From: Promethearchaeia archaeon
Lineage (GTDB): Archaea > Asgardarchaeota > Lokiarchaeia > Sigyniarchaeales > SOKP01
Direction: 5' to 3'
Length of the DNA stretch: 32,000 nucleotides
Assembly (NCBI GenBank): GCA_046497275.1
Contig: JAWOFX010000092.1
Coordinates: forward strand, 5,682 to 37,681
Numbering within the stretch: position 1 is the first letter of the stretch; every line of letters starts with the position of its first letter. Under the pieces are notes generated by a model. It was not told the DNA's origin. It saw nothing but the letters and a program-made list of their open reading frames with translations, and made no database searches. Position numbers and translations under genes: made by a program. This document shows, one piece after another, positions 8,472 through 29,471 of the stretch.

Positions 8472-10204
8472 ATGGTGGTGAGCTAATTGGTCAAATTCTT
8501 AAAAAAAAAAGAGTTGATTTTATATTCACATTATGTGGTGGGCATATAGCACCAATTTTAGTTGGAGCCAAAAAACAAGGATTAAGAGTTATTGATGTGC
8601 GACATGAGCCTACAGCGGTTTTTGCAGCAGATGCAGTTTCACGACTTACGGGTATACCAGGTGTTGCAGTTGTTACAGCAGGTCCAGGAGTGACTAACTC
8701 GGTTACTGCTGTAAAGAATGCTCAAATGGCACAATCTCCACTAATTTTATTAGGAGGTGCAGCAGCAACAGTTTTACAAGGGAGGGGGGCCCTTCAAGAT
8801 ATTGAACAACTTGATTTATATAAATCAATTGTAAAATGGGAAACCTCGATAGAGCAGAATTGCGATATTGAACCGATTTTGAATGAAGCTTTTGAAGTTT
8901 CAATGTCGGGAATTCCAGGTCCGGTTTTTATAGAATGTCCAATCGACGTATTATATGAAGAAGAACTTGTTAGAGAATGGTATGGAAAACGTTCGAAATC
9001 TCAAATCAACTCTTTAAAACAGAAAGTGGTTAATTGGTACCTTCAGAGACATGTAGATAAGCTTTTTGCATGTTCAATTGATGATGTAAAAAATAAAGAA
9101 AATGAGGATATTGTACCATTTTCTGTCGATCAAGAACAATTACAGAAAGTTGCTTCTCAAATTAACAATTCAAAAAAACCCGTTTTGATATTAGGAAGTC
9201 AAGCCACAAAACGAGTTGAATTAGTTTATGAACTTGCAGAGGGATTGAAAAATTTTGGGGTACCTGTTTTTTTAGCAAGCATGTCAAGAGGGCTACTTGG
9301 AAGGGATCATCCTTCATATTTTCGTCATGGACGTTCAAAGGCGCTTAAAGAAGCAGATTTAATAATAATATGTGGAATGCCTTGTGATTTTAGATTAAAT
9401 TATGGAAGAGCACTTAATAAAGGAGCTTTCCATATAGCAATCAATAGAAGTAAAGATGATTTGACTAATAATAAAAAACCAGATATGGCAATTCAAGCCG
9501 ATCCCGCAACATTTTTAGTAGAACTTTCTAAATCATTCTCATTTGAAAGAGAAAAATGGTTTCAATGGTATGAGACTTTGAAAGAATGGGAAATGGGTGG
9601 TAAAGCCAAAATTGAAAGATTTGCTCATGTTGATACGGATTTTTTAAATCCATTAGCTTTTTTGAAGGAGATTTACAACTATATAGAGGATAATGTGATT
9701 ATAATAGGAGATGGTGGTGACTTCATTGCAACAACATCCTATATTATTAAACCACCAAAACCTTTATCTTGGTTGGATCCTGGTCCTTATGGCACATTAG
9801 GAGTTGGTGCTGGATTTGCATTAGCAGCTAAATTAGTGCATCCAGAATCAGAAGTATGGCTTTTTTGGGGTGATGGTGCAGCTGGGTATAGCATTGCGGA
9901 AATTGATACATTTGTTAGACATAGCTTGCCAATAATTTCAGTGATTGGAAATGATGCTGGCTGGACTCAGATTGAAAGAGATCAAGTAGAATATTTAGAC
10001 GATTCGGTTGGAACGAACTTGAAATTCACAGATTATCATATAGTAGCAGAGGGATATGGAGGAGAAGGATTACTATTAAAAAATAAGGCGAATATTTCCC
10101 GTGTGGTCAACCAAGCAAAATTATTAGCCAAAAATGGTTCTCCCGTACTTATCAATGCTCTTATGGGTAAGACAGATTTTCGAAAAGGCTCAATCTCAAT
10201 GTAG
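8468..10204 (+). CDS. ILVBL: ThDP-dependent enzyme of the ILVBL / 2-hydroxyacyl-CoA lyase 2 subfamily (acetolactate-synthase-like)
   Basis: [48 protein letters not shown], ThDP motif GDG...ND and C-terminal [10 protein letters not shown]. Start set at ATG 8468 (ATGA overlap with the thioesterase stop; GGAGG at 8454-8458). Confidence 0.88.
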
Positions 10205-13459: not shown

Positions 13460-14761
13460 TTAGATTTTTAAAATTTCAGTATCTTCGTAGCCTTCTGCCA
13501 ATTTAGGTTTTATGAAATGAATTGAACTTAGATAAAAGGGGATTAAGCATAATTCTACAAAAATTGAAATTATGAATGGCGCTTTTAATCCTAAAAAATC
13601 AACGGCTAACCCTCCGAATAAAGGTCCTATAATAAATCCAAAACTTCTAAAAAATCTATATGCTCCCATCATTTTACCTCGATGACCAATAGAAATTCTA
13701 CTATAAATATTTTGCATTAAAATATTTCCAATATTTACTATTGCTGTATCAAATGTCAGGAGTAGTGAAAACAATATGATGTTATCAATATTGATTATTG
13801 CCCACGTAATAGAGGCTCCGATTATACTTATAATGAGTAATCCTAACGTTGGACTAATTCTATCAATGATATCTCCTAATTTAGGAGCAAGGAACATTGC
13901 GATAATACCACTTGGAATATAGGCAAGCATCGCAAATATAGTATTATCAACAATCTCTTCAATAACATAGACATTTAGGAAAGGTTTAGCAAGCGATCCA
14001 TTAATATTACTCAATAAAATAACCAAACAGAAAAACAGAATTCCTATTAAAATACTATTGTTTGTAATATTTCGATTATTATTCAAATCTTCTTTATTTT
14101 TCACAGAGAAATTATTTTTTTCTGTAGGGAATTTGATTTTTTCATCAACCTTATAATGGAAAAGAATGCCTGCATAAAAGTTAGAAATCCCATAAATCAA
14201 TATTGAACAATAAGTAAAAAAGAGATTATTTGGGAAAAAATAAATACCAATACCTAATATTCCAAAACCAAATAGTCCTCCTATAAATAATCCTTTTCCA
14301 ACAGCAGAATCTCTTTTTCCATATGCATGGGATCGATGATTTTTATTAGATTTCTCAGCAATGATGGTATCAAAAGGAATCCAAAAAAATCCTACAAAGA
14401 TTCCTATAGAAAATGTACCAATTCCAATATAAAAGAGAGATTTAAAGACAATAGCAAAATAAAGAATGAAATAAGCTATTCCTCTTCCGAAGGAACCCAG
14501 TAATATCAATTTAGTTCTAGATTTTATTTTATCGGTTAAATAACCTGTAAAAAATGTACTTATCAATAACCCAATAGTTTGAACTGAAAATATTAATCCA
14601 ACATCAAATCCAGATGCGTTTAATTCTTGTGTAGCGTAAATAGGGATAATGAATTCTAAAAAGAAAAACCCAAGACTATTAAAAATTACATTATTGATTA
14701 CAGATTTGAAATCATCGGTATATTTCTTCTCTTGGTTTTTATGTGTGTTTCTTATCTTCAT
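13460..14761 (-). CDS. MFS transporter
   Basis: About 12 TM; motif A GYLTDKIKSRTK in the first half, GDIIDRI in the second half, and HRGKMMG. Confidence 0.9.
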   Translation of the reverse strand: MKIRNTHKNQEKKYTDDFKSVINNVIFNSLGFFFLEFIIPIYATQELNASGFDVGLIFSVQTIGLLISTFFTGYLTDKIKSRTKLILLGSFGRGIAYFILYFAIVFKSLFYIGIGTFSIGIFVGFFWIPFDTIIAEKSNKNHRSHAYGKRDSAVGKGLFIGGLFGFGILGIGIYFFPNNLFFTYCSILIYGISNFYAGILFHYKVDEKIKFPTEKNNFSVKNKEDLNNNRNITNNSILIGILFFCLVILLSNINGSLAKPFLNVYVIEEIVDNTIFAMLAYIPSGIIAMFLAPKLGDIIDRISPTLGLLIISIIGASITWAIINIDNIILFSLLLTFDTAIVNIGNILMQNIYSRISIGHRGKMMGAYRFFRSFGFIIGPLFGGLAVDFLGLKAPFIISIFVELCLIPFYLSSIHFIKPKLAEGYEDTEILKI

Positions 14762-15089
14762 ATTCAGAGTAAATGTCAGATATATTTATCATAATAGTTA
14801 ATGTAAATTATATTTTTTTAAAAATTGATTAAAATCGATTTCAAAATCTTAATCATCATAATTAGAGATTTTATTTGGAAAGTTATTGATGAATTTCATT
14901 TATAACATTCGTGAAAGCACACTTTAACGCAGAAAGATATATATCTAAATGATATAGGAGTGATATATTCATTATTTTATAATTTGAAAAATGAAAACCA
15001 TGAATGAATAATCAAAAAATATTTGATACTGCTAATTTTTTTTAATTTACATGCTTTTATTTAAATAAGCATAGTTAAAATTATCGAGG

Positions 15090-17360
15090 GTGATTGCGAT
15101 TCCACTTACAAGAGTAGGTAAAAAGGATCTTGTGCCGATTATTCTGGTACTTTTACTCTTATTCGTCTCAATAGCATGTGCTAATATGTTAATTCCTTCT
15201 TATGCTGCTATAAAAGATGAATTTGGTATATCTGAATCCTTAATTGCAATACCAGATGCCTTTTTTGTGTTAGTTAGTGCGTTTTTCGCATTAGTTTGGG
15301 GATATTATACTGATAGAATAAATAGAACAAAATTAATCTTCGCTGGGGCATTTTCTTGGACAATTGGAATGCTTTTAACTGGATTTAGTATTAACTTGCC
15401 AATGATCATTTTTTCCCGTATGCTAAGTGGAGCGGGTTTAGGATGTGTGTTACCTGTGGGGTATTCCATTATTTCTGATGCGATCCCTCCAGATGAACGA
15501 TCTGGATGGTTCGGAATGCTTGCAATATTGAGTTCAGTTTCAAATGGTATAGGACAAGCACTATCATCATTTATTGGTCCTTTACTTACTTGGAGATTTC
15601 CTTTTTTCCTCTTGTCTGGAATAAGTTTAATAATTGTATTCTTTCTATTCTTTATTAAATTGCCCTATAGAGGGGCAAGTGAGATCGAATTAACAGAATT
15701 AGGGGATTTGAATCTTGAATATAGTTATAGAATTTCTAAAACTGATTTAAATGAAATAATTGGAAAAAAAACAAATCAATATTTGGTTATTCAAGGGTTT
15801 TTTTCCATCATTCCCGGTACAATTTTTATATATTTTTTAACCTCAATGTTTACTCTTATTTATTTTAATCCATTACCTCAAGAAATAAGACTTCAGACCG
15901 CTACTATTTTTGCAGGTTTGGTTGGAATAGGATATCTGTTAGGAAATATAATTCTTTCGGCACTTGGAGATTATTTATTTAAGAAAAATAAAAAAAATAG
16001 AGCAATACTAGCGACTATTTGTATGTTAGCTACAGTTCCAATCAGTTTATTAATGTTGTTCTTTATTCAGCCAATTGAATTAAATGCATTAGGAATAAGT
16101 TATCCATCTGTGATTTATCCCTCAGAAATTGCAACGTACTTATTTAGAACAATTGGCGCAATCTTTATTACCTATCCAAATTTTATTTTCTTTTTTATTT
16201 TTGCTTTGATTGGTTCAATTTTAAGCAGTGGTCCCGTCGCAAATAGAAATGCTGTTATGATTGACGTTAATTTACCAGAACATAAAGGAACAGCAGCCTC
16301 CTTATTCAACCTTTCAGAACAAATCGGAAAAGGTGTAACACTTCTAATCTCATTCCTACTGATTTCTTTACTGGGTAGTATTTACAGAATGATGATTTTT
16401 TCTGTATTTTTTTGGCTACCCGCAGGGGTATTATGGTTTTTAGCAAGTCGTAAAGTTGAAGAGGATATGGAAAAGAAATCAAAAATCTTAAAGGAAAGAA
16501 AACAGATCACTTTAATAGATTTTATTTTTGAACTTGAAATTCAAATGGACAGGGCAATACAAAAAATACAAGACTCTAAGTATTATATTAAAAAAGATAA
16601 AGAGAAATTTTTAGAGCTTTTAAATAACGCAATTGATATTCTAGAGAAATGTGAAAAACAATCTAAAGTAACAAGTATAACTAATATTCAAAATAAAACA
16701 AAAAAAATTAAAGAGAAAGCTAAACTCGTCAAAAATCAAGTGAAAGAGATTTATAAAGAACTTAAAAAGAAAGATATTCCAGAACAAAGAAGAAAAAGTC
16801 TTAATGAAGATTTAAACCAAATAAAATTATGGATGGGGGAGTGGGAAAAATCTACATTTGGCACTATTCAGACATATTATGAAGATGCGTATTTAAAAAT
16901 ATTAGAAGCAAGACTGTTAAGAAAAGTAAACTTTCTTGAGGCTTTATCTAAGATTCAAAATGCTATTAGCATTTATCATAGAGTTAAACATTTACTTAGT
17001 GAAAGGATTGATACGGTCGATAAGAAGAGTGATTTATCTGAAGAAGATTTAGTTGCCTATGAAAAAGAAATGGAATTACAGAAAAAATCTCGCGACGCTC
17101 TATGGGCAACTATACATCTCAAAAACCAAATCGATGATGTAATCTCAAAATTAGAAGAACATAATATTGATAAAAAGGATTTAAAAAAAATCTCTAATCT
17201 CACCTCTGAATATGATATAAATATTCATAAAGTAATATTAGATACCTTCGCTCAAGATAAAACAACAAAAAGAAAATTAAAATTAATCTTGGATGAGATC
17301 AATAAGAGTTTTAATGAATTCGACAAATTGTATGAATTGCAAGATCTTCAGGTGTTCTAA
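15090..17360 (+). CDS. Spinster-like MFS transporter fused to a ~300-aa cytosolic helical domain
   Basis: WGYYTDRINRTK, SRMLSGAGLG, IISDAIPPDERSG, ALGDYLFKK and DVNLPEHKGTA. Residues after about 452 are hydrophilic and helical. GTG start. Confidence 0.85.
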   Translation: MIAIPLTRVGKKDLVPIILVLLLLFVSIACANMLIPSYAAIKDEFGISESLIAIPDAFFVLVSAFFALVWGYYTDRINRTKLIFAGAFSWTIGMLLTGFSINLPMIIFSRMLSGAGLGCVLPVGYSIISDAIPPDERSGWFGMLAILSSVSNGIGQALSSFIGPLLTWRFPFFLLSGISLIIVFFLFFIKLPYRGASEIELTELGDLNLEYSYRISKTDLNEIIGKKTNQYLVIQGFFSIIPGTIFIYFLTSMFTLIYFNPLPQEIRLQTATIFAGLVGIGYLLGNIILSALGDYLFKKNKKNRAILATICMLATVPISLLMLFFIQPIELNALGISYPSVIYPSEIATYLFRTIGAIFITYPNFIFFFIFALIGSILSSGPVANRNAVMIDVNLPEHKGTAASLFNLSEQIGKGVTLLISFLLISLLGSIYRMMIFSVFFWLPAGVLWFLASRKVEEDMEKKSKILKERKQITLIDFIFELEIQMDRAIQKIQDSKYYIKKDKEKFLELLNNAIDILEKCEKQSKVTSITNIQNKTKKIKEKAKLVKNQVKEIYKELKKKDIPEQRRKSLNEDLNQIKLWMGEWEKSTFGTIQTYYEDAYLKILEARLLRKVNFLEALSKIQNAISIYHRVKHLLSERIDTVDKKSDLSEEDLVAYEKEMELQKKSRDALWATIHLKNQIDDVISKLEEHNIDKKDLKKISNLTSEYDINIHKVILDTFAQDKTTKRKLKLILDEINKSFNEFDKLYELQDLQVF

Positions 17361-24862: not shown

Positions 24863-25579
24863 ATGAATACTTTAGAATTTTTAAACGGATTTTTGAGTCT
24901 TATTTATGTTGGAATATCGTTATTGATTGGCTTAACTCTAATTTATTCATATTTTAAACGAAATGAAAAAATACTTATTTATATAGGTTTTAGTTTAATT
25001 GGAATTGTCACTCCATGGTATCCGAGTAGTATTTCATTTATCGTGGCGCTTTTTAATTATGGAAAAGGAATTCCAGAAGTATTATATTATATAATAGGAA
25101 ACGCATTCGGTCCTCTCTTCCTTTTTGTATGGTTGGTGGTTTTCACCAACTATTATTATCAAAAGTATAAGAAATATATATTAGGCGCCTCGATAATTTA
25201 TGGAATCGTATTTGAAATCATTTTTTTTACTTTATTAATATTGGATCCGTCAAATATAGCATATTATGAACCCCCCGTAAATGTCGAATTTACGGGTATT
25301 TATTTGATACTAGCGGTATCAGTTATAATGATTTTTTTTATCACTGGAATACTATTTTCTTATGGTGCAATTACTTGCCATAGACAAGAGGATAAGATAA
25401 AGGGCTTTTTTGTTTTTACCGCCTTTATATCTTACACCTTGGGAGCATTTTTAGATGCTGCAGTTCAACAAGATTATTTAAATTTAATAATCACCAGAAC
25501 GATATTAATTTCGGGAGCAATTGAATGGTATTTTGGATTTATTATGCCCAATTGGCTTAAAAAAAGAATCCTAAATTAA
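24863..25579 (+). CDS. Stand-alone 7-TM membrane protein, paralog 1
   Basis: Seven hydrophobic segments with short loops and no cytosolic enzyme domain; gap-free alignment to the next gene (136/237 identical by hand count). Confidence 0.85.
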   Translation: MNTLEFLNGFLSLIYVGISLLIGLTLIYSYFKRNEKILIYIGFSLIGIVTPWYPSSISFIVALFNYGKGIPEVLYYIIGNAFGPLFLFVWLVVFTNYYYQKYKKYILGASIIYGIVFEIIFFTLLILDPSNIAYYEPPVNVEFTGIYLILAVSVIMIFFITGILFSYGAITCHRQEDKIKGFFVFTAFISYTLGAFLDAAVQQDYLNLIITRTILISGAIEWYFGFIMPNWLKKRILN

Positions 25580-25772
25580 TCTTCCAAGAATTATAATTAT
25601 CATAGATTTAGGTATAAATAAGAGGCGTTTTATTCTTATGTCTCCCTAATAACATTATAACTATTTTTCACTCAATAACGATTATTTCACAGAAGAAGAA
25701 TAAAGTAAATTTAATAATAAGAAGTTTTATTATTTAGGTAATTCAGCATTTAATTCTGAGTGGTTTCAAAAT

Positions 25773-26486
25773 ATGGATGCTTTCACTATTTTAAATGGTA
25801 CTTTTAGTATAATATATGTATTTATTTCAATCTTAGTTGGAGGTACAATGATCGCAGCTTATTTTAAAAATAAGGAAAAGCTGCTACTTTTGGTTGGTTT
25901 GACATGGATTGGTTTAGTAATGCCATGGTATCCAAGTAGTATATCCTTTATCGTTGCTCTTTTCAATAATGGAGTAGGAATCTCAGAGATCGCATACTAC
26001 TTAATTGGGAATGTTGCAGCTCCGGTTTTTATTTTTATTTGGTTAATGGCGTTTACAGAATTCTTTTTTGTAGAAAAACGTAAGGTTATATTAGGAGGAG
26101 GATTAGTTTACGTAATACTATTTGAGGCTATATTTTTAATATTATTAATTCTGAATCCTAGTGGTATTGCCGACTTTGAACCCCCGATTAATGTAGATTA
26201 TAAAGGTCTGTATTTAATTCTGGCATTATCCGTCATTCTCATAGTATCTACTACTGGATTATACTTTTCATATCGGTCGATTAAAACAGAGAAGAGAAAA
26301 ACCAAAATAAAGGGATATTTCCTTTTGGCTGCGTTCATTTCATATACGATTGGAGCGATTCTGGATGCTGCTATCGCAAGAGATTATTTGCTCTTGATTA
26401 TAGCAAGGATAATATTGATTACAGGCGCAATAGAATGGTATTTTGGGTTTATAATGCCTAAATTTTTACAAAAAAGATTGGAATAG
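25773..26486 (+). CDS. Stand-alone 7-TM membrane protein, paralog 2
   Basis: Same topology; shares PWYPSSISFIVALFN, AFISYTxGAxLDAA and GAIEWYFGFIMP with paralog 1. Confidence 0.85.
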   Translation: MDAFTILNGTFSIIYVFISILVGGTMIAAYFKNKEKLLLLVGLTWIGLVMPWYPSSISFIVALFNNGVGISEIAYYLIGNVAAPVFIFIWLMAFTEFFFVEKRKVILGGGLVYVILFEAIFLILLILNPSGIADFEPPINVDYKGLYLILALSVILIVSTTGLYFSYRSIKTEKRKTKIKGYFLLAAFISYTIGAILDAAIARDYLLLIIARIILITGAIEWYFGFIMPKFLQKRLE

Positions 26487-26573
26487 ATGAATTCTGTAGA
26501 AAGAATTTTTGATTTTTAACAAAAAATTAGAAGATAATCAAGATAATACCTATGTATCACCATGGTATTACAC

Positions 26574-26582
26574 TTTTTTTTT
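26574..26582 (+). terminator. Possible oligo-T archaeal terminator after the second 7TM gene
   Basis: T9 run 88 bp past the stop codon, followed by TTATAATT at 26591-26598. T runs are common at this AT content. Confidence 0.3.
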
Positions 26583-26634
26583 ATCTTTGCTTATAATTTA
26601 TTCTTTAACTACTCATTTGATAATTAATTGAATT

Positions 26635-27165
26635 ATGTTAAGATCAACTCTTATTGATGAAACAATTAAGGTTTCTATTATAGGTTTCCCTGCGGTGGGT
26701 AAAACAACAATGACCAAAATGTTAGCCCAGAAGGAAACAACGAAGAAATATATTCCAACTGCTGGTTTTGATTTAAAGACTGTAGAATTCGGTCCTTACC
26801 GTTTGAAAATCTGGGACTTCGGAGGTCAAAAAAACTATATGAATAAATATTTAGAAGATTTCATTGTAGGATCAGATTTGATTTTCATTGTAACTGATTC
26901 TACCCCAAAAAATGTTCTGAATTCGAGGGAACTTATAGACCATGCTCGAGAAATTATGGAAGATGACTGTCCCATTATCGCAATAGCCAATAAACAAGAT
27001 TTATGTGAAACTGATGGGAGAATGAATCATAAAATGGTAGAGGATCTATTACATACAAAAACGGTTGGTTTGAGTGCTGTAGATCATCAAGAAAGATTGC
27101 GTTTAATAAATATTATAGAAAATGAATTAGAAAAAGTATTAAAAAGGAGGGATTTAAAAGAATGA
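26635..27165 (+). CDS. Small GTPase, Arf-related (Ras superfamily)
   Basis: G1 GFPAVGKTT, G2 PTAGF, G3 WDFGGQ, G4 ANKQD, G5 SAV. No Gly2 myristoylation site and no CAAX box. Confidence 0.95.
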   Translation: MLRSTLIDETIKVSIIGFPAVGKTTMTKMLAQKETTKKYIPTAGFDLKTVEFGPYRLKIWDFGGQKNYMNKYLEDFIVGSDLIFIVTDSTPKNVLNSRELIDHAREIMEDDCPIIAIANKQDLCETDGRMNHKMVEDLLHTKTVGLSAVDHQERLRLINIIENELEKVLKRRDLKE

Positions 27166-27728
27166 ATTTTGATAAAAATGAATTATTTGGTGCGGCCCTC
27201 ATAGGGTTTGATATGATTGATGGCCCGTTTCTCAAATGGAAAAAGGAATTTAAAGAGAAAACGGATATTGTCCAACTGGATGATTTCGCTATGAATTTTT
27301 ATTTATCATTTCGAGGGGGAAACTCGGGTAAAAAACCAAGAGCCATACTTTATGATAATTTTTACATAGTAGCTTTTCCGAAAGATCTTGAATTATGCTG
27401 TCTATTTATGAAACCAAAAAATATTGAAGCTAATATAAATAATTTGAATAAAATTGCATCTAGAATCATGTTAGAGATGGAAATTGACGAAGATAATGAA
27501 TGTGTTGAAGATGAAATTAGTGATGATTCTGATGAAAATACAGTAGAAGAGATTAAACGTCTCATTCTTAATATGTTAAATGATACGAAAATGAGTACCC
27601 CAGAGATGAGAAAATACTTTAAGCTTACCAATGCTGAGATTTGGAAAATTATGTCAGATCTTGAGAGTGCCAAAAAGGTAATGAGGGCAGGTAAGAAAGG
27701 GAGAGCTCAACTATGGACGACTCCATAA
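27162..27728 (+). CDS. Longin/uDENN-like domain + acidic linker + winged-HTH fusion
   Basis: N-terminal AALIGFDMIDGPFLKW resembles the F/W-D-x-x-x-GP hairpin that starts C9orf72/NPRL2-type longin domains, then a D/E-rich linker, then a wHTH pattern ending GRAQLW. ATGA overlap with the GTPase; AGGAGG at 27145-27150. Confidence 0.7.
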   Translation: MNFDKNELFGAALIGFDMIDGPFLKWKKEFKEKTDIVQLDDFAMNFYLSFRGGNSGKKPRAILYDNFYIVAFPKDLELCCLFMKPKNIEANINNLNKIASRIMLEMEIDEDNECVEDEISDDSDENTVEEIKRLILNMLNDTKMSTPEMRKYFKLTNAEIWKIMSDLESAKKVMRAGKKGRAQLWTTP

Positions 27729-27768: not shown

Positions 27769-28592
27769 TCACACCTCTTTTAAGATTCGATCCTCCCAAT
27801 GTTTTTCTTTTAAAAATATGTTGGAAAAAACCATATAACAAATATCGGGTAGAGCTTTCTGATTGTATTTTAAAGTTATAAACCTAAGAATATGATTGAT
27901 TAAATAGATTGCTAGAAGTTCAATCTCATAAACCCCAATGTTTTTCAAATTTTCACCTGAGTAAGAAACATCCAGTTTATTCTGATTTTCATCGTATGTT
28001 AGTTCAATAAATATATTAGGAAATATTTCCTTGTTTATTTTCCATTCTCTGTCTTTAATCAACACTTTAGCCTCAAAAATTTTTTCTAATCTTATCTTAT
28101 CTTATCTTCTGGGTTTAAGAATGTAAGTGCGAGTCTTCTTTTTCTTAAGGTTTTTTGCATTAATTGGGTTTTTTCGTTATAAGAGGTGCTTAATGGAGTC
28201 TCATTTCTTAGTCTTCTCTCAATATAATTAATAATTATTTCGTTATATGAAAAAAGTTCTTTACCTGATATCAAATAAACCCGATCTCCAGAACAAAGAA
28301 ATTTTAATTCCCCTGCTGTATCTCCAAATTCACCTCCATAATAAAAATATGATATATGGATATTAACCTCCGGAAAAATTTCTAAAGTAAGGGTCCACTC
28401 TTCATCGAATCCGATATTTTCTATCATTGCTCCGAGGTCTTTTTTACTAATTTCTTCTATTACATCTATTTGAATATCTTTGAATAAAGGTGCTTTAGCC
28501 TTACTCATATCTATTAATTCTCGTTCGTGAGGTCCTCTTATACCAGTAGCATCAATTTGTCCGATAGTGAGAAATCTTCGTCTTTGAGTCAT
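27769..28592 (-). pseudogene. Frameshifted paralog of the 28659..29471 gene (split into ORFs 28092..28592 and 27769..28065)
   Basis: The two ORFs match the N- and C-halves of the neighbour. Removing one ATAAG unit restores a 272-aa frame that is colinear across the junction. Confidence 0.85.
28090..28108. repeat. Pentanucleotide tandem repeat (TCTTA)3 TCTT at the frameshift site
   Basis: Directly visible as tcttatcttatcttatctt; the premature TAA (28092-28094, minus strand) lies inside it. Confidence 0.95.
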
Positions 28593-28658: not shown

Positions 28659-29471
28659 TTATATTCTTCTATGTTTCCAATTTTTTTCCTTGGTCATCAA
28701 ACGTGAAAACATAATATAACAAATATCTGGAAGATCTTTCTCTGGGTGGTTTATCGTTATAAATCTAAGAATATGATTGATCAAGAAAATTGCGATTAAT
28801 TCAATATGATAACTTCCAATTTTTTCCAAATTATCACCTGAATAAGAAACATCTAAGTCCTTCTGATTTTCATCATATATTAGTTCAATAAATATTCCCG
28901 GAAATATTTCTTTTTTAAATTTCCATTCAGATGGGTTTTTCCATACATTCGCACCAATAAAATCTTGCAGATTTTCCTTATCCTCTTCTTTTAGCAAATT
29001 AAAAGGTTCTTTTCTCTGCTCTAAGACCTTTTTCATTAATTCTGTTTTTTCTTTATAATTTTTCTCAAATGGTTTCACTCCTTTAATTTGCCTTTCTATG
29101 AAATCCATAACTACATCTATATATGTAGCAATATCTTCCCCAGGAACCCAATATACTCTTTCACCAGAGAATAGGAATTTGAATTCAGCTTCAATATCTC
29201 CACCAAATTCATCTCCAATATATGTATAGACCATGTGAATATTTACTTCAGGAAACATCTCTTTCGTAATTGTCCAGTCCTCACTAAACCCAATATTTAC
29301 GAGTTCTCCTCCAATATCTTCTTTAAGAATCTTTAGAAGACTCTCTCTTTCAAGATCTATAAAATTATGATATTTTGCATTACTTATATCTTCTAATTCC
29401 TTTTCATGTGGACCTCTAACACCAGTAGCATCAATTTGACCTACGGTAAAAAATTTTCTTCTATCTGCCAT
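28659..29471 (-). CDS. Hypothetical protein with two internal DUF3786-like repeats
   Basis: Two copies of W.I/F.KE.FP.V/I.I.L/M.Y...SG...E...I.R.I. The first copy (FPEVNIHMVY..GDEF...EFKFLFSG....PGEDIA) resembles DUF3786. Confidence 0.7.
   Translation of the reverse strand: MADRRKFFTVGQIDATGVRGPHEKELEDISNAKYHNFIDLERESLLKILKEDIGGELVNIGFSEDWTITKEMFPEVNIHMVYTYIGDEFGGDIEAEFKFLFSGERVYWVPGEDIATYIDVVMDFIERQIKGVKPFEKNYKEKTELMKKVLEQRKEPFNLLKEEDKENLQDFIGANVWKNPSEWKFKKEIFPGIFIELIYDENQKDLDVSYSGDNLEKIGSYHIELIAIFLINHILRFITINHPEKDLPDICYIMFSRLMTKEKNWKHRRI

Follow-up and report, generated by a model that had tools for sequence, protein, structure and literature searches.

A conserved gene pair encoding an Arf-like GTPase and a partner with a predicted longin/roadblock-type domain in Lokiarchaeia and related Asgard archaea

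The DNA analysed here is a stretch of 32,000 nucleotides from a Promethearchaeia archaeon of the class Lokiarchaeia (contig JAWOFX010000092.1), referred to throughout as the window. It carries a pair of overlapping genes. The first encodes an Arf-family GTPase, and the second encodes a protein, here called the partner, in which a domain with the fold of the roadblock/longin superfamily is followed by a winged helix-turn-helix (HTH). The pair is conserved in several Asgard families, the C-termini of the partner vary and are of nucleic-acid type, and a promoter element is common to this operon, ftsZ1, ftsZ2 and a roadblock-like gene. From these observations we infer that the partner may bind the GTPase, sense its nucleotide state and bind DNA, with the promoter element as a candidate site. 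We judge the evidence to be evenly poised on the proposal as a whole, namely that the two genes are a switch module conserved in Lokiarchaeia and related Asgard archaea, and that it acts as a regulator which is bound to DNA, switched by the GTPase and linked to cell division.

A coupled gene pair and its conservation

The two genes overlap by four base pairs in the sequence ATGA, and an AGGAGG ribosome-binding site for the partner lies within the GTPase gene. Both features had been noted in a preliminary description of the locus, and both are read directly from the window (Table 1). The overlap indicates translational coupling. Of 28 distinct orthologous loci, 14 show the 4-nt overlap, and the distances between GTPase and partner genes all fall between -29 and +52 nt. 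Contigs from salt-lake metatranscriptomes match both genes with at least 99% identity, and the junction is bridged by contigs from the RNA libraries of two runs (X2, 26873-27407, in one run; X3, 27122-27318, in another). These contigs agree with co-transcription without proving it; DNA may be present in the libraries, and one contig does not equal one transcript. One metatranscriptome contig starts at 26607, approximately 25-30 nt downstream of the T-run listed in Table 1, which gives a weak hint of a transcript start.

The partner has 499 homologues at E <= 0.01. The best 120 of these 499 are at least 68% identical to it, and all named ones among those 120 belong to Lokiarchaeia or Promethearchaeota assemblies. 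Among 1.8 billion cluster representatives only 28 clusters belong to the family, which is therefore narrow and under strong constraint. Searched with a profile of the partner's N-terminal domain (N-domain), 89 of the phylum's 301 genomes give matches; these include 61 of the 68 from the family to which the window belongs, 6 of the 7 from the sister family, and members of several other families. Both the GTPase and the partner are single-copy, and the N-domain is nearly always so.

At every locus where the partner matches at E <1e-30, the GTPase gene lies directly upstream on the same strand, with the exceptions of L002, where the contig is cut, and L032, where the partner has a basic tail and no adjacent GTPase. 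The paired loci span several Asgard families, and their remaining neighbours differ. Five genomes of the window's family seem to be without the partner. Three of these are also without the orthologous GTPase, and in the other two the contig ends after the GTPase gene. The latter two (G071 and G077) are near-complete genomes of the same genus, and true absence of the partner from them was considered and dropped, as the assemblies break after the GTPase (C11, 37-558; C62, 59-577), at the very point where the partner gene would be expected to start. The pair is also present in genome G210, which we take to be that of the cultured MK-D1.

The GTPase stays adjacent when the C-terminus of the partner is replaced by an alternative helical domain (L003, L031 and L039) or by a run of arginines (L030), which argues that the N-domain is the GTPase-linked module. 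No fused forms of GTPase and partner were found among longer proteins, which is weak evidence, and a complex prediction (GTPase alignment, GTP, Mg and N-domain alignment) scored 0.08 against a mark of 0.32 and is evidence neither way. We consider it quite probable that the two proteins bind each other.

Upstream of the pair, the window contains two paralogous multi-pass membrane proteins without a Pfam family (24863-26486, plus strand). A signalling locus joining these seven-transmembrane (7TM) proteins to the GTPase was considered and dropped: a 7TM homologue adjoins the pair in ~7 of 20 same-family loci and in none of the distant loci. In three of the four runs, the RNA contigs do not join the 7TM genes to the gene for the GTPase but leave a gap. 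Because of this gap and the limited adjacency, the 7TM genes are not counted in the module. Downstream, open reading frames (ORFs) of 98 and 166 aa (27769-28592, minus strand) form a split paralogue, which jointly matches an intact 270-aa neighbour (28659-29471, minus strand). The intact gene, which has no Pfam family, is a convergent downstream neighbour in almost all same-family loci and is not found in this position in distant ones. As the 7TM and 270-aa neighbours are conserved within the family only, the GTPase-partner pair is all of the locus that is conserved at distance.

Table 1. Features of the GTPase-partner operon in the window
Feature	Position	Strand	Basis
Arf-family GTPase gene, 176 aa	26635-27165	+	ORF read from sequence
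Partner gene, 188 aa	27162-27728	+	ORF read from sequence
ATGA start/stop overlap	27162-27165	+	GTPase TGA 27163-27165, partner ATG 27162-27164
AGGAGG ribosome-binding site of partner, within GTPase gene	27145-27150	+	11 nt before ATG at 27162
Phased TAWTAY element	26544-26575	+	92 nt before GTPase ATG; conservation in orthologous loci
T-run and TTATAA stretch, possible TATA/BRE region (inferred)	26576-26597	+	sequence only
Partner N-domain, residues 1-112, predicted longin/roadblock-superfamily fold	27162-27497	+	AlphaFold model and structural neighbours
Acidic low-complexity linker, residues 106-124	27477-27533	+	predicted local distance difference test (pLDDT) <50 at residues 109-124
Partner C-domain, residues 125-188, winged HTH, with stop codon	27534-27728	+	structural neighbours

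Folds of the two products

Among all GTPase families, the first gene product scores highest with Pfam Arf (PF00025; 66.5 bits against a cut-off of 22.3, E 2.7e-18), and its nearest solved structures by sequence are Arl3 (E 1e-15), Arf1, Arl2 and Arl8. The G-motifs typical of Arf proteins are all present (PTAGF in switch I, WDFGGQ in switch II, and NKQD) and are kept in 20 orthologues. Residues invariant across these 20 include G17, P19, G22, K23, T42, D61, G64, T87-D88-S89 and N119-K-Q-D122. The TDS(T)PxNVL patch after switch II is likewise invariant among the orthologues, and all 20 have a proline at the position equivalent to Ras Gly12. The catalytic glutamine that had been ascribed to the GTPase is indeed present, as Gln65 of WDFGGQ. 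It is replaced by histidine in two distant orthologues (L003, 2995-3474, WDLAGH; L030, 3283-3765, FDLAGH), the partners of which are without a winged helix. The G3 motif of MglA-type GTPases (TxxGQ, without the conserved Asp; PMC4316618) is not seen here: the Asp of WDFGGQ, D61, is the same in all 20 orthologues.

An N-terminal amphipathic helix and Gly2 were looked for in the GTPase and neither was found, with only ~10 residues (MLRSTLIDET) preceding the first strand. For this reason the protein is called Arf-like and not a canonical Arf. There is also no C-terminal lipidation motif (CaaX) in its sequence. Being without the amphipathic helix, Gly2 and a lipidation motif, the GTPase is read as a soluble switch.

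The partner had been described as a beta-beta-alpha-beta-beta-beta-alpha domain followed by a linker and a winged helix, and the full-length AlphaFold2 model, made with an alignment of 31 homologues, has the same order. The N-domain consists of two strands (residues 8-17 and 21-29), a helix (39-51), three further strands (61-63, 68-74 and 77-83) and a final helix (88-112). Modelled alone (model m68620c17ee18), it has a pLDDT of 83 and a predicted template modelling score of 0.71. Its invariant residues are F16, G21, P22, Y47, F50, G53 and P59.

Nearly all of the top 50 structural neighbours of the N-domain are small-GTPase-binding proteins of roadblock or longin type. The roadblock-type neighbours are dynein LC7 (VIA Z 8.3; root-mean-square deviation (rmsd) 2.5 with 72 residues aligned), LAMTOR4/5 (8.0-8.2), MP1/p14 (7.7) and MglB (7.7-7.8; rmsd 2.9, 77 aligned), along with solved roadblock proteins of MK-D1 (7.0-7.6). 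The longin-type neighbours are TRAPPC (8.2), zeta-COP (8.2), AP mu/sigma (7.4-7.6), NPRL2 in GATOR1 (7.5), Mon1-Ccz1 (7.4), BLOC-3 (7.2) and C9orf72-SMCR8 (6.6). Foldseek matches of the domain are all longin, roadblock or DENN proteins (including DENND1), and are weak (E >= 4e-3, TM-score ~0.5). A shape search of the ESM Atlas adds Sybindin/Sedlin, delta-COP, Intu_longin_1 and DENND11. A Z-score of ~8 is middling in absolute terms, and the fold argument therefore rests on the consistency of the list of neighbours.

The order of secondary structure elements was compared with both branches of the superfamily. The N-terminal hairpin start fits that of longin domains. However, there is one long C-terminal helix rather than an alpha-alpha ending, and this helix lies outside the aligned part of the matches. 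Longin matches align from their own residue 1, and roadblock matches from residue 10-25, past their first helix. The roadblock order, in which an N-terminal helix comes first, is not found in the partner, where only 7 residues precede strand 1; the similarity to the roadblock core sheet and helix is present in structure (Z 8.3 to dynein LC7, 8.2 to LAMTOR4 and 7.8 to MglB). Because the Z-scores are tied within 1 and the order is longin-like but ends in a single C-terminal helix, the domain is filed under the roadblock/longin superfamily. The model supports this placement, and the domain is not assignable to longin proper. Thus, of the longin/uDENN fold proposed earlier, the class stands, as that of a fold serving as a GTPase platform, and the choice of longin over roadblock does not.

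By sequence, no Pfam family matches the partner at E <= 1 (Longin, Sybindin, Sedlin, NPR2 and Intu_longin included). Comparison with the sequences of the PDB gave nothing significant by phmmer and nothing with the family profile, and the N-domain was likewise without a match when compared by hhalign with two of this genome's roadblock families. A feature search of the ESM Atlas returned sub-threshold leads only (0.79), among them a Promethearchaeota cluster with NPR2 in 19% of its members.

A different reading of the N-domain is suggested by the full-length model, for which the best Foldseek match is CodY (E 1.8e-3), a combination of a GAF domain and a winged helix. The partner would then be a one-component regulator, in which a GAF/PAS/profilin-like N-domain senses a small molecule on behalf of the winged helix, and the GTPase would be co-expressed without contacting it. 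The occurrence of standalone N-domains without an adjacent GTPase (see below) and the lack of GTPase fusions among longer proteins would fit such an arrangement. However, the N-domain alone has roadblock and longin neighbours and not GAF or PAS, and its coupled adjacency to one GTPase orthogroup persists across families while the other neighbours all change. We regard a one-component regulator as highly improbable.

The loop between strands 4 and 5 (residues 73-77, PKDLE) had been described as free of arginine. This is correct for the window protein, but does not extend to its homologues: position 74 is lysine in the window protein and in 70 of 130 homologues, and arginine in 46 of the 130. 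With Lys or Arg at most instances of this position, the Lokiarchaeial clade has a basic loop throughout. R51, R60 and K/R74 are conserved within this clade only, and are replaced in distant members. A counterpart of the catalytic arginine of longin-type GTPase-activating proteins (GAPs; FLCN, NPRL2 and SMCR8) was looked for in the N-domain, and no arginine was found to be invariant family-wide. Because no arginine is invariant, a classical arginine-finger GAP mechanism appears unlikely for the family as a whole, in line with the preliminary description. The partner may instead act in the manner of MglB, by positioning catalytic residues that belong to the GTPase itself, or it may serve as an exchange factor, an effector or a scaffold.

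The linker that follows the N-domain is acidic, but its sequence and length differ among homologues. The C-domain is modelled as a three-helix bundle (helices 125-139, 146-153 and 157-169) with a wing (strands 174-179 and 182-186). It has a VIA Z of 10.8 to PH1932 (2cwe; rmsd 2.0, 62 residues aligned) and of 9-10.5 to ArsR/SmtB, MarR, IclR and Z-alpha domains, which bears out the winged helix proposed from sequence. Pfam HTH matches among 31 family members are HTH_27 in 8, HTH_11 in 6 (best 7e-8), HTH_5 in 3 (1e-7) and HTH_DeoR in 3 (1e-7). The recognition helix of distant members shows the classical pattern of a DNA-binding HTH (S..TIRRYL..L...G).

In the Lokiarchaeial class the C-terminus of the partner is a winged helix. 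Two other Asgard families instead have some 70 residues of another helical domain, marked by a GLGxKR motif (L003, L031 and L039), in one family the N-domain is followed by ten arginines (L030), and in another by a basic tail (L032). These sequences point to C-termini that vary between lineages, yet consistently look directed towards nucleic acids. That the C-domain of the partner binds DNA is, in our view, fairly probable. Two more specific readings were dropped. A helix-hairpin-helix (HhH) in the alternative C-domain was hinted at by a Pol X HhH region at E 0.71 only, other searches giving nothing, and the domain is for this reason named by its motif. Binding of Z-DNA was set aside because the positions equivalent to the contacts of ADAR1 Z-alpha (Asn173 and Tyr177) are Trp and Ser here.

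Winged helices also mediate contacts between proteins, as in ESCRT-II and cullins. The pair could thus be a pure GTPase-regulator pair of the MglA/MglB type, in which the partner would be a dimeric GAP, guanine nucleotide exchange factor (GEF) or scaffold, its winged helix would serve dimerisation or protein contacts with no role at DNA, and the promoter element described below would merely co-express the pair with division genes. The N-domain has MglB (Z 7.8), LAMTOR proteins and Mon1-Ccz1 among its neighbours, MglA/MglB genes are typically coupled in an operon, and the winged helix of the window protein has no Pfam DNA-binding match and a third helix that is not strongly basic. On the other hand, distant members match DNA-binding HTH families at E ~1e-7 and carry the S..TIRRYL..L...G pattern, and the winged helix is elsewhere replaced by a poly-arginine or basic tail, which fits binding of nucleic acid and not a specific protein contact. 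We think a pair without a role at DNA unlikely.

The promoter element and the proposed switch

The element upstream of the GTPase gene has the consensus ATAATAYnnnGATATTAYnnnGATTCATATT, in which TAWTAY units are phased 11 nt apart, and its flanks are not conserved. In loci of the window's own family it lies at -63 to -95 from the GTPase start, and loci held out of matrix building score 31-40 bits. Other families of the class carry it too (L001, L034 and L035), even though their partners are no more than 30-35% identical. The element is weaker in L004 and moderate (12.0 bits, core) in L031 and L039, both of which have the alternative C-domain. It was not found at one further alternative-C-domain locus or at the poly-arginine locus. 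In the window the core reads ATAATACCTATGTATCAC and is followed by the third unit GGTATTACAC; this copy differs from the consensus in the third unit, and the T-run follows it.

In the short form ATAATAYnnnGATATTAY, the same element precedes three other genes in many genomes, and the copies there are among the best intergenic ones of this genome outside the operon. Upstream of ftsZ1 (Pfam Tubulin and FtsZ_C), the core scores at least 13 bits at -77 to -94 in ~20 of 28 genomes, and two further families carry it at -77. It is found at 12 of 12 ftsZ2 loci, with three to four phased units and a less certain distance to the start codon, and in 8 of 11 orthologous loci of a roadblock-like gene, ~80 nt before the start codon. 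The copies before these three genes in the window's own genome (G000) are at C34 16783-16840 (L040/L043), C111 2235-2266 (L112) and C136 14147-14178 (L041/L090). As a negative control, orthologues of an SH3 gene with a strong site in this genome have best scores of -1 to 7 bits. A strong site before a tandem-SH3 gene (contig C83) was set aside, since it is not conserved in orthologues, and is treated as chance or lineage-specific. A phased TAWTAY element common to the operon, ftsZ1, ftsZ2 and the roadblock gene is new here. The preliminary description had suggested a transcription regulator that senses the GTP state, or an ancestral longin-wHTH scaffold; the variable DNA-binding end of the partner and the element in common with the ftsZ genes give the first of these suggestions a concrete form.

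On this basis, the following mechanism is proposed. The first gene would provide a soluble Arf-like GTPase without a membrane anchor. The partner, made by coupled translation, would offer its longin/roadblock-type N-domain as a docking platform for the GTPase, and its winged helix would place the complex on DNA. The platform domain may read the nucleotide state of the GTPase and so alter the action of the DNA-bound partner, and the partner may also adjust the hydrolysis or exchange of GTP with no need of an arginine finger, much as MglB acts on MglA. The likeliest target would be the 11-nt-phased element of its own operon and, because the same element precedes ftsZ1, ftsZ2 and the roadblock gene, the module would be tied to cell division. 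That the partner binds the phased element is a tentative suggestion. The full form of the proposal, in which the partner is a small-GTPase-gated transcription factor that dimerises through its longin/roadblock domain and binds the element at its own operon, at both ftsZ genes and at the roadblock gene, we hold to be possible but doubtful.

The operon could instead be only a target, with another regulator, such as a CdrS-like ribbon-helix-helix (RHH) protein, binding the element and controlling ftsZ1, ftsZ2, the roadblock gene and the operon. The winged helix of the partner would in that case bind something else, or bind DNA non-specifically. Genes for CdrS-like RHH proteins (a label that reflects a reading of sequence and not a Pfam match) are present in this genome, and immediately precede ftsZ in two other Asgard families (L074 in G041; L075 in G007). 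Poly-arginine and basic tails suggest binding that is non-specific rather than sequence-specific, and the moderate core match is retained at L031 and L039 (12.0 bits), where the C-domain is of the alternative kind. However, the partner is the sole DNA-binding fold among the genes that carry the conserved element, and the element tracks the operon into families where the partner is ~30% identical. In addition, the element at ftsZ was found only in lineages with a winged-helix partner (f1, f3 and f4; degenerate in f2), although this is confounded by phylogeny. In two lineages whose partner lacks the winged helix, ftsZ has no such element and instead has a CdrS-like RHH gene upstream. Control of the operon by another regulator we hold to be possible, but less likely than not.

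Several further observations weigh against a GTPase-gated regulator acting at the element. The likeness of the N-domain to longin and roadblock proteins is structural only, with Z ~8, Foldseek E >= 4e-3 and no profile-profile signal. In other Asgard families, some relatives of the N-domain stand alone at ~130 aa (L026-L029, L037 and L038), with no GTPase gene beside them. The winged helix of the window protein matches no Pfam HTH model, and winged helices serve protein-protein contacts as well. The window copy of the element is a weaker variant (16.3 bits with the full matrix, 17.6 bits with the core), and MK-D1 has the operon, but the element is degenerate in MK-D1 and its family. The genome also contains two CdrS-like RHH genes (C46 11775-12071 and 13536-13826), which are rival candidates for binding the element. 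Finally, neither the full nor the core matrix shows a clear genome-wide excess over column-permuted matrices. A regulon, if there is one, must therefore be small, and the argument depends on how well the element is kept at the promoters of orthologous genes. Controls in which the spacer length of a simple palindrome was varied were uninformative in this genome of 30% GC.

Some additional features were observed. The standalone N-domain relatives share a conserved C-terminal SCLRSL helix. At L027 and L037, the divergent neighbour of the standalone N-domain is a 143-aa protein with a faint match to Intu_longin_1 (E 0.13). Another copy of the element in the window (18.8 bits; 14935-14966, minus strand) lies between divergent transporter genes (13460-14761, minus; 15090-17360, plus), ~175 nt from the start of the minus-strand gene. 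In contig C128 of G000 (~9160-9290) there is a 17.9-bit core site 124 nt upstream of a 255-aa ORF, the N-terminus of which (MIRDVLIIKDGLPMF) looks like another hairpin of longin/roadblock type.

Comparison with known systems

Asgard archaea have large eukaryote-like families of small GTPases, the native regulators and effectors of which are unknown. The GTPase genes of MK-D1 do not as a rule share an operon with roadblock or longin genes (PMC10933270), which makes GTPase-regulator pairing hard to predict. The operon described here is an exception to that rule, and goes undetected in sequence-based domain searches; no description of the GTPase-partner pair was found in the literature searched. 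As a conserved, single-copy and coupled pair, apparently present in the cultured MK-D1, it offers a defined combination of GTPase and platform for reconstitution. The fusion of platform and DNA module, and the element shared with ftsZ, suggest that some Asgard GTPases may act on the chromosome, gene expression and division rather than on membranes, and so bear on the role of small-GTPase switches before eukaryotic membrane traffic. If the proposal is correct, an Arf-like switch would directly set the expression of cell-division genes in Lokiarchaeia, and a Ras-superfamily switch would be wired to DNA through a longin-type platform, for which no description was found in any domain of life.

The AArfs of Asgard archaea (PMC11914678) come from the same group of organisms, and the GTPase described here is also Arf-like by hidden Markov model. 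The studied AArfs bind membranes through N-terminal helices, and their native regulators are still to be established (PMC11914678). In contrast, the present GTPase is without an N-terminal membrane helix.

Among bacterial systems, MglA/MglB (Myxococcus, Thermus), other operons of a GTPase with a Roadblock/LC7 protein, and the actinobacterial conservons (CvnB/CvnD) likewise place a GTPase gene beside that of a roadblock-type sheet protein. The likeness to MglA/MglB extends to a regulator without an arginine finger, and MglB is a structural neighbour of the N-domain. However, the GTPase here is Arf-like with an Asp in DxxGQ, and the GTPase gene comes first. The partner differs from MglB in having neither the N-terminal roadblock helix nor a Robl_LC7 sequence signal, and in its fusion to a winged helix. 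A parallel in layout is provided by the bacterial Group 3 MglA genes, whose neighbour is an uncharacterised protein in which a conserved N-domain is joined by a variable linker to a winged helix at the C-terminus; Wuichet and Sogaard-Andersen (2014) proposed a link to transcription for this neighbourhood (PMC4316618). There too, a small GTPase is found beside a protein with an N-domain, variable linker and winged helix, although the N-domain is predicted to be receiver-like and the GTPase is MglA-type and bacterial.

The eukaryotic longin regulators, namely TRAPP, Mon1-Ccz1, DENN, FLCN-FNIP, NPRL2-NPRL3 and C9orf72-SMCR8, include GAP and GEF complexes of the same fold (PMC12290439). They share with the partner the N-terminal hairpin start, are structural neighbours of its N-domain at Z 6.6-8.2, and work with Arf, Rab or Rag-type GTPases. 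The partner differs in its single C-terminal helix, in having no conserved catalytic Arg and no evident gene for a heterodimer partner, and in the fusion of its domain to a DNA-binding domain. Eukaryotic longin proteins are not known to be fused to a DNA-binding domain. In concept only, the arrangement resembles Ran-RCC1, in which a small-GTPase regulator is tethered to DNA or chromatin and the state of the GTPase informs on the chromosome; the folds are unrelated, RCC1 being a beta-propeller. In none of the MglA/MglB-type operons, the Group 3 MglA neighbourhoods or the eukaryotic longin complexes does an Arf-like GTPase occur together with a domain of longin/roadblock type that is fused to a DNA-binding module.

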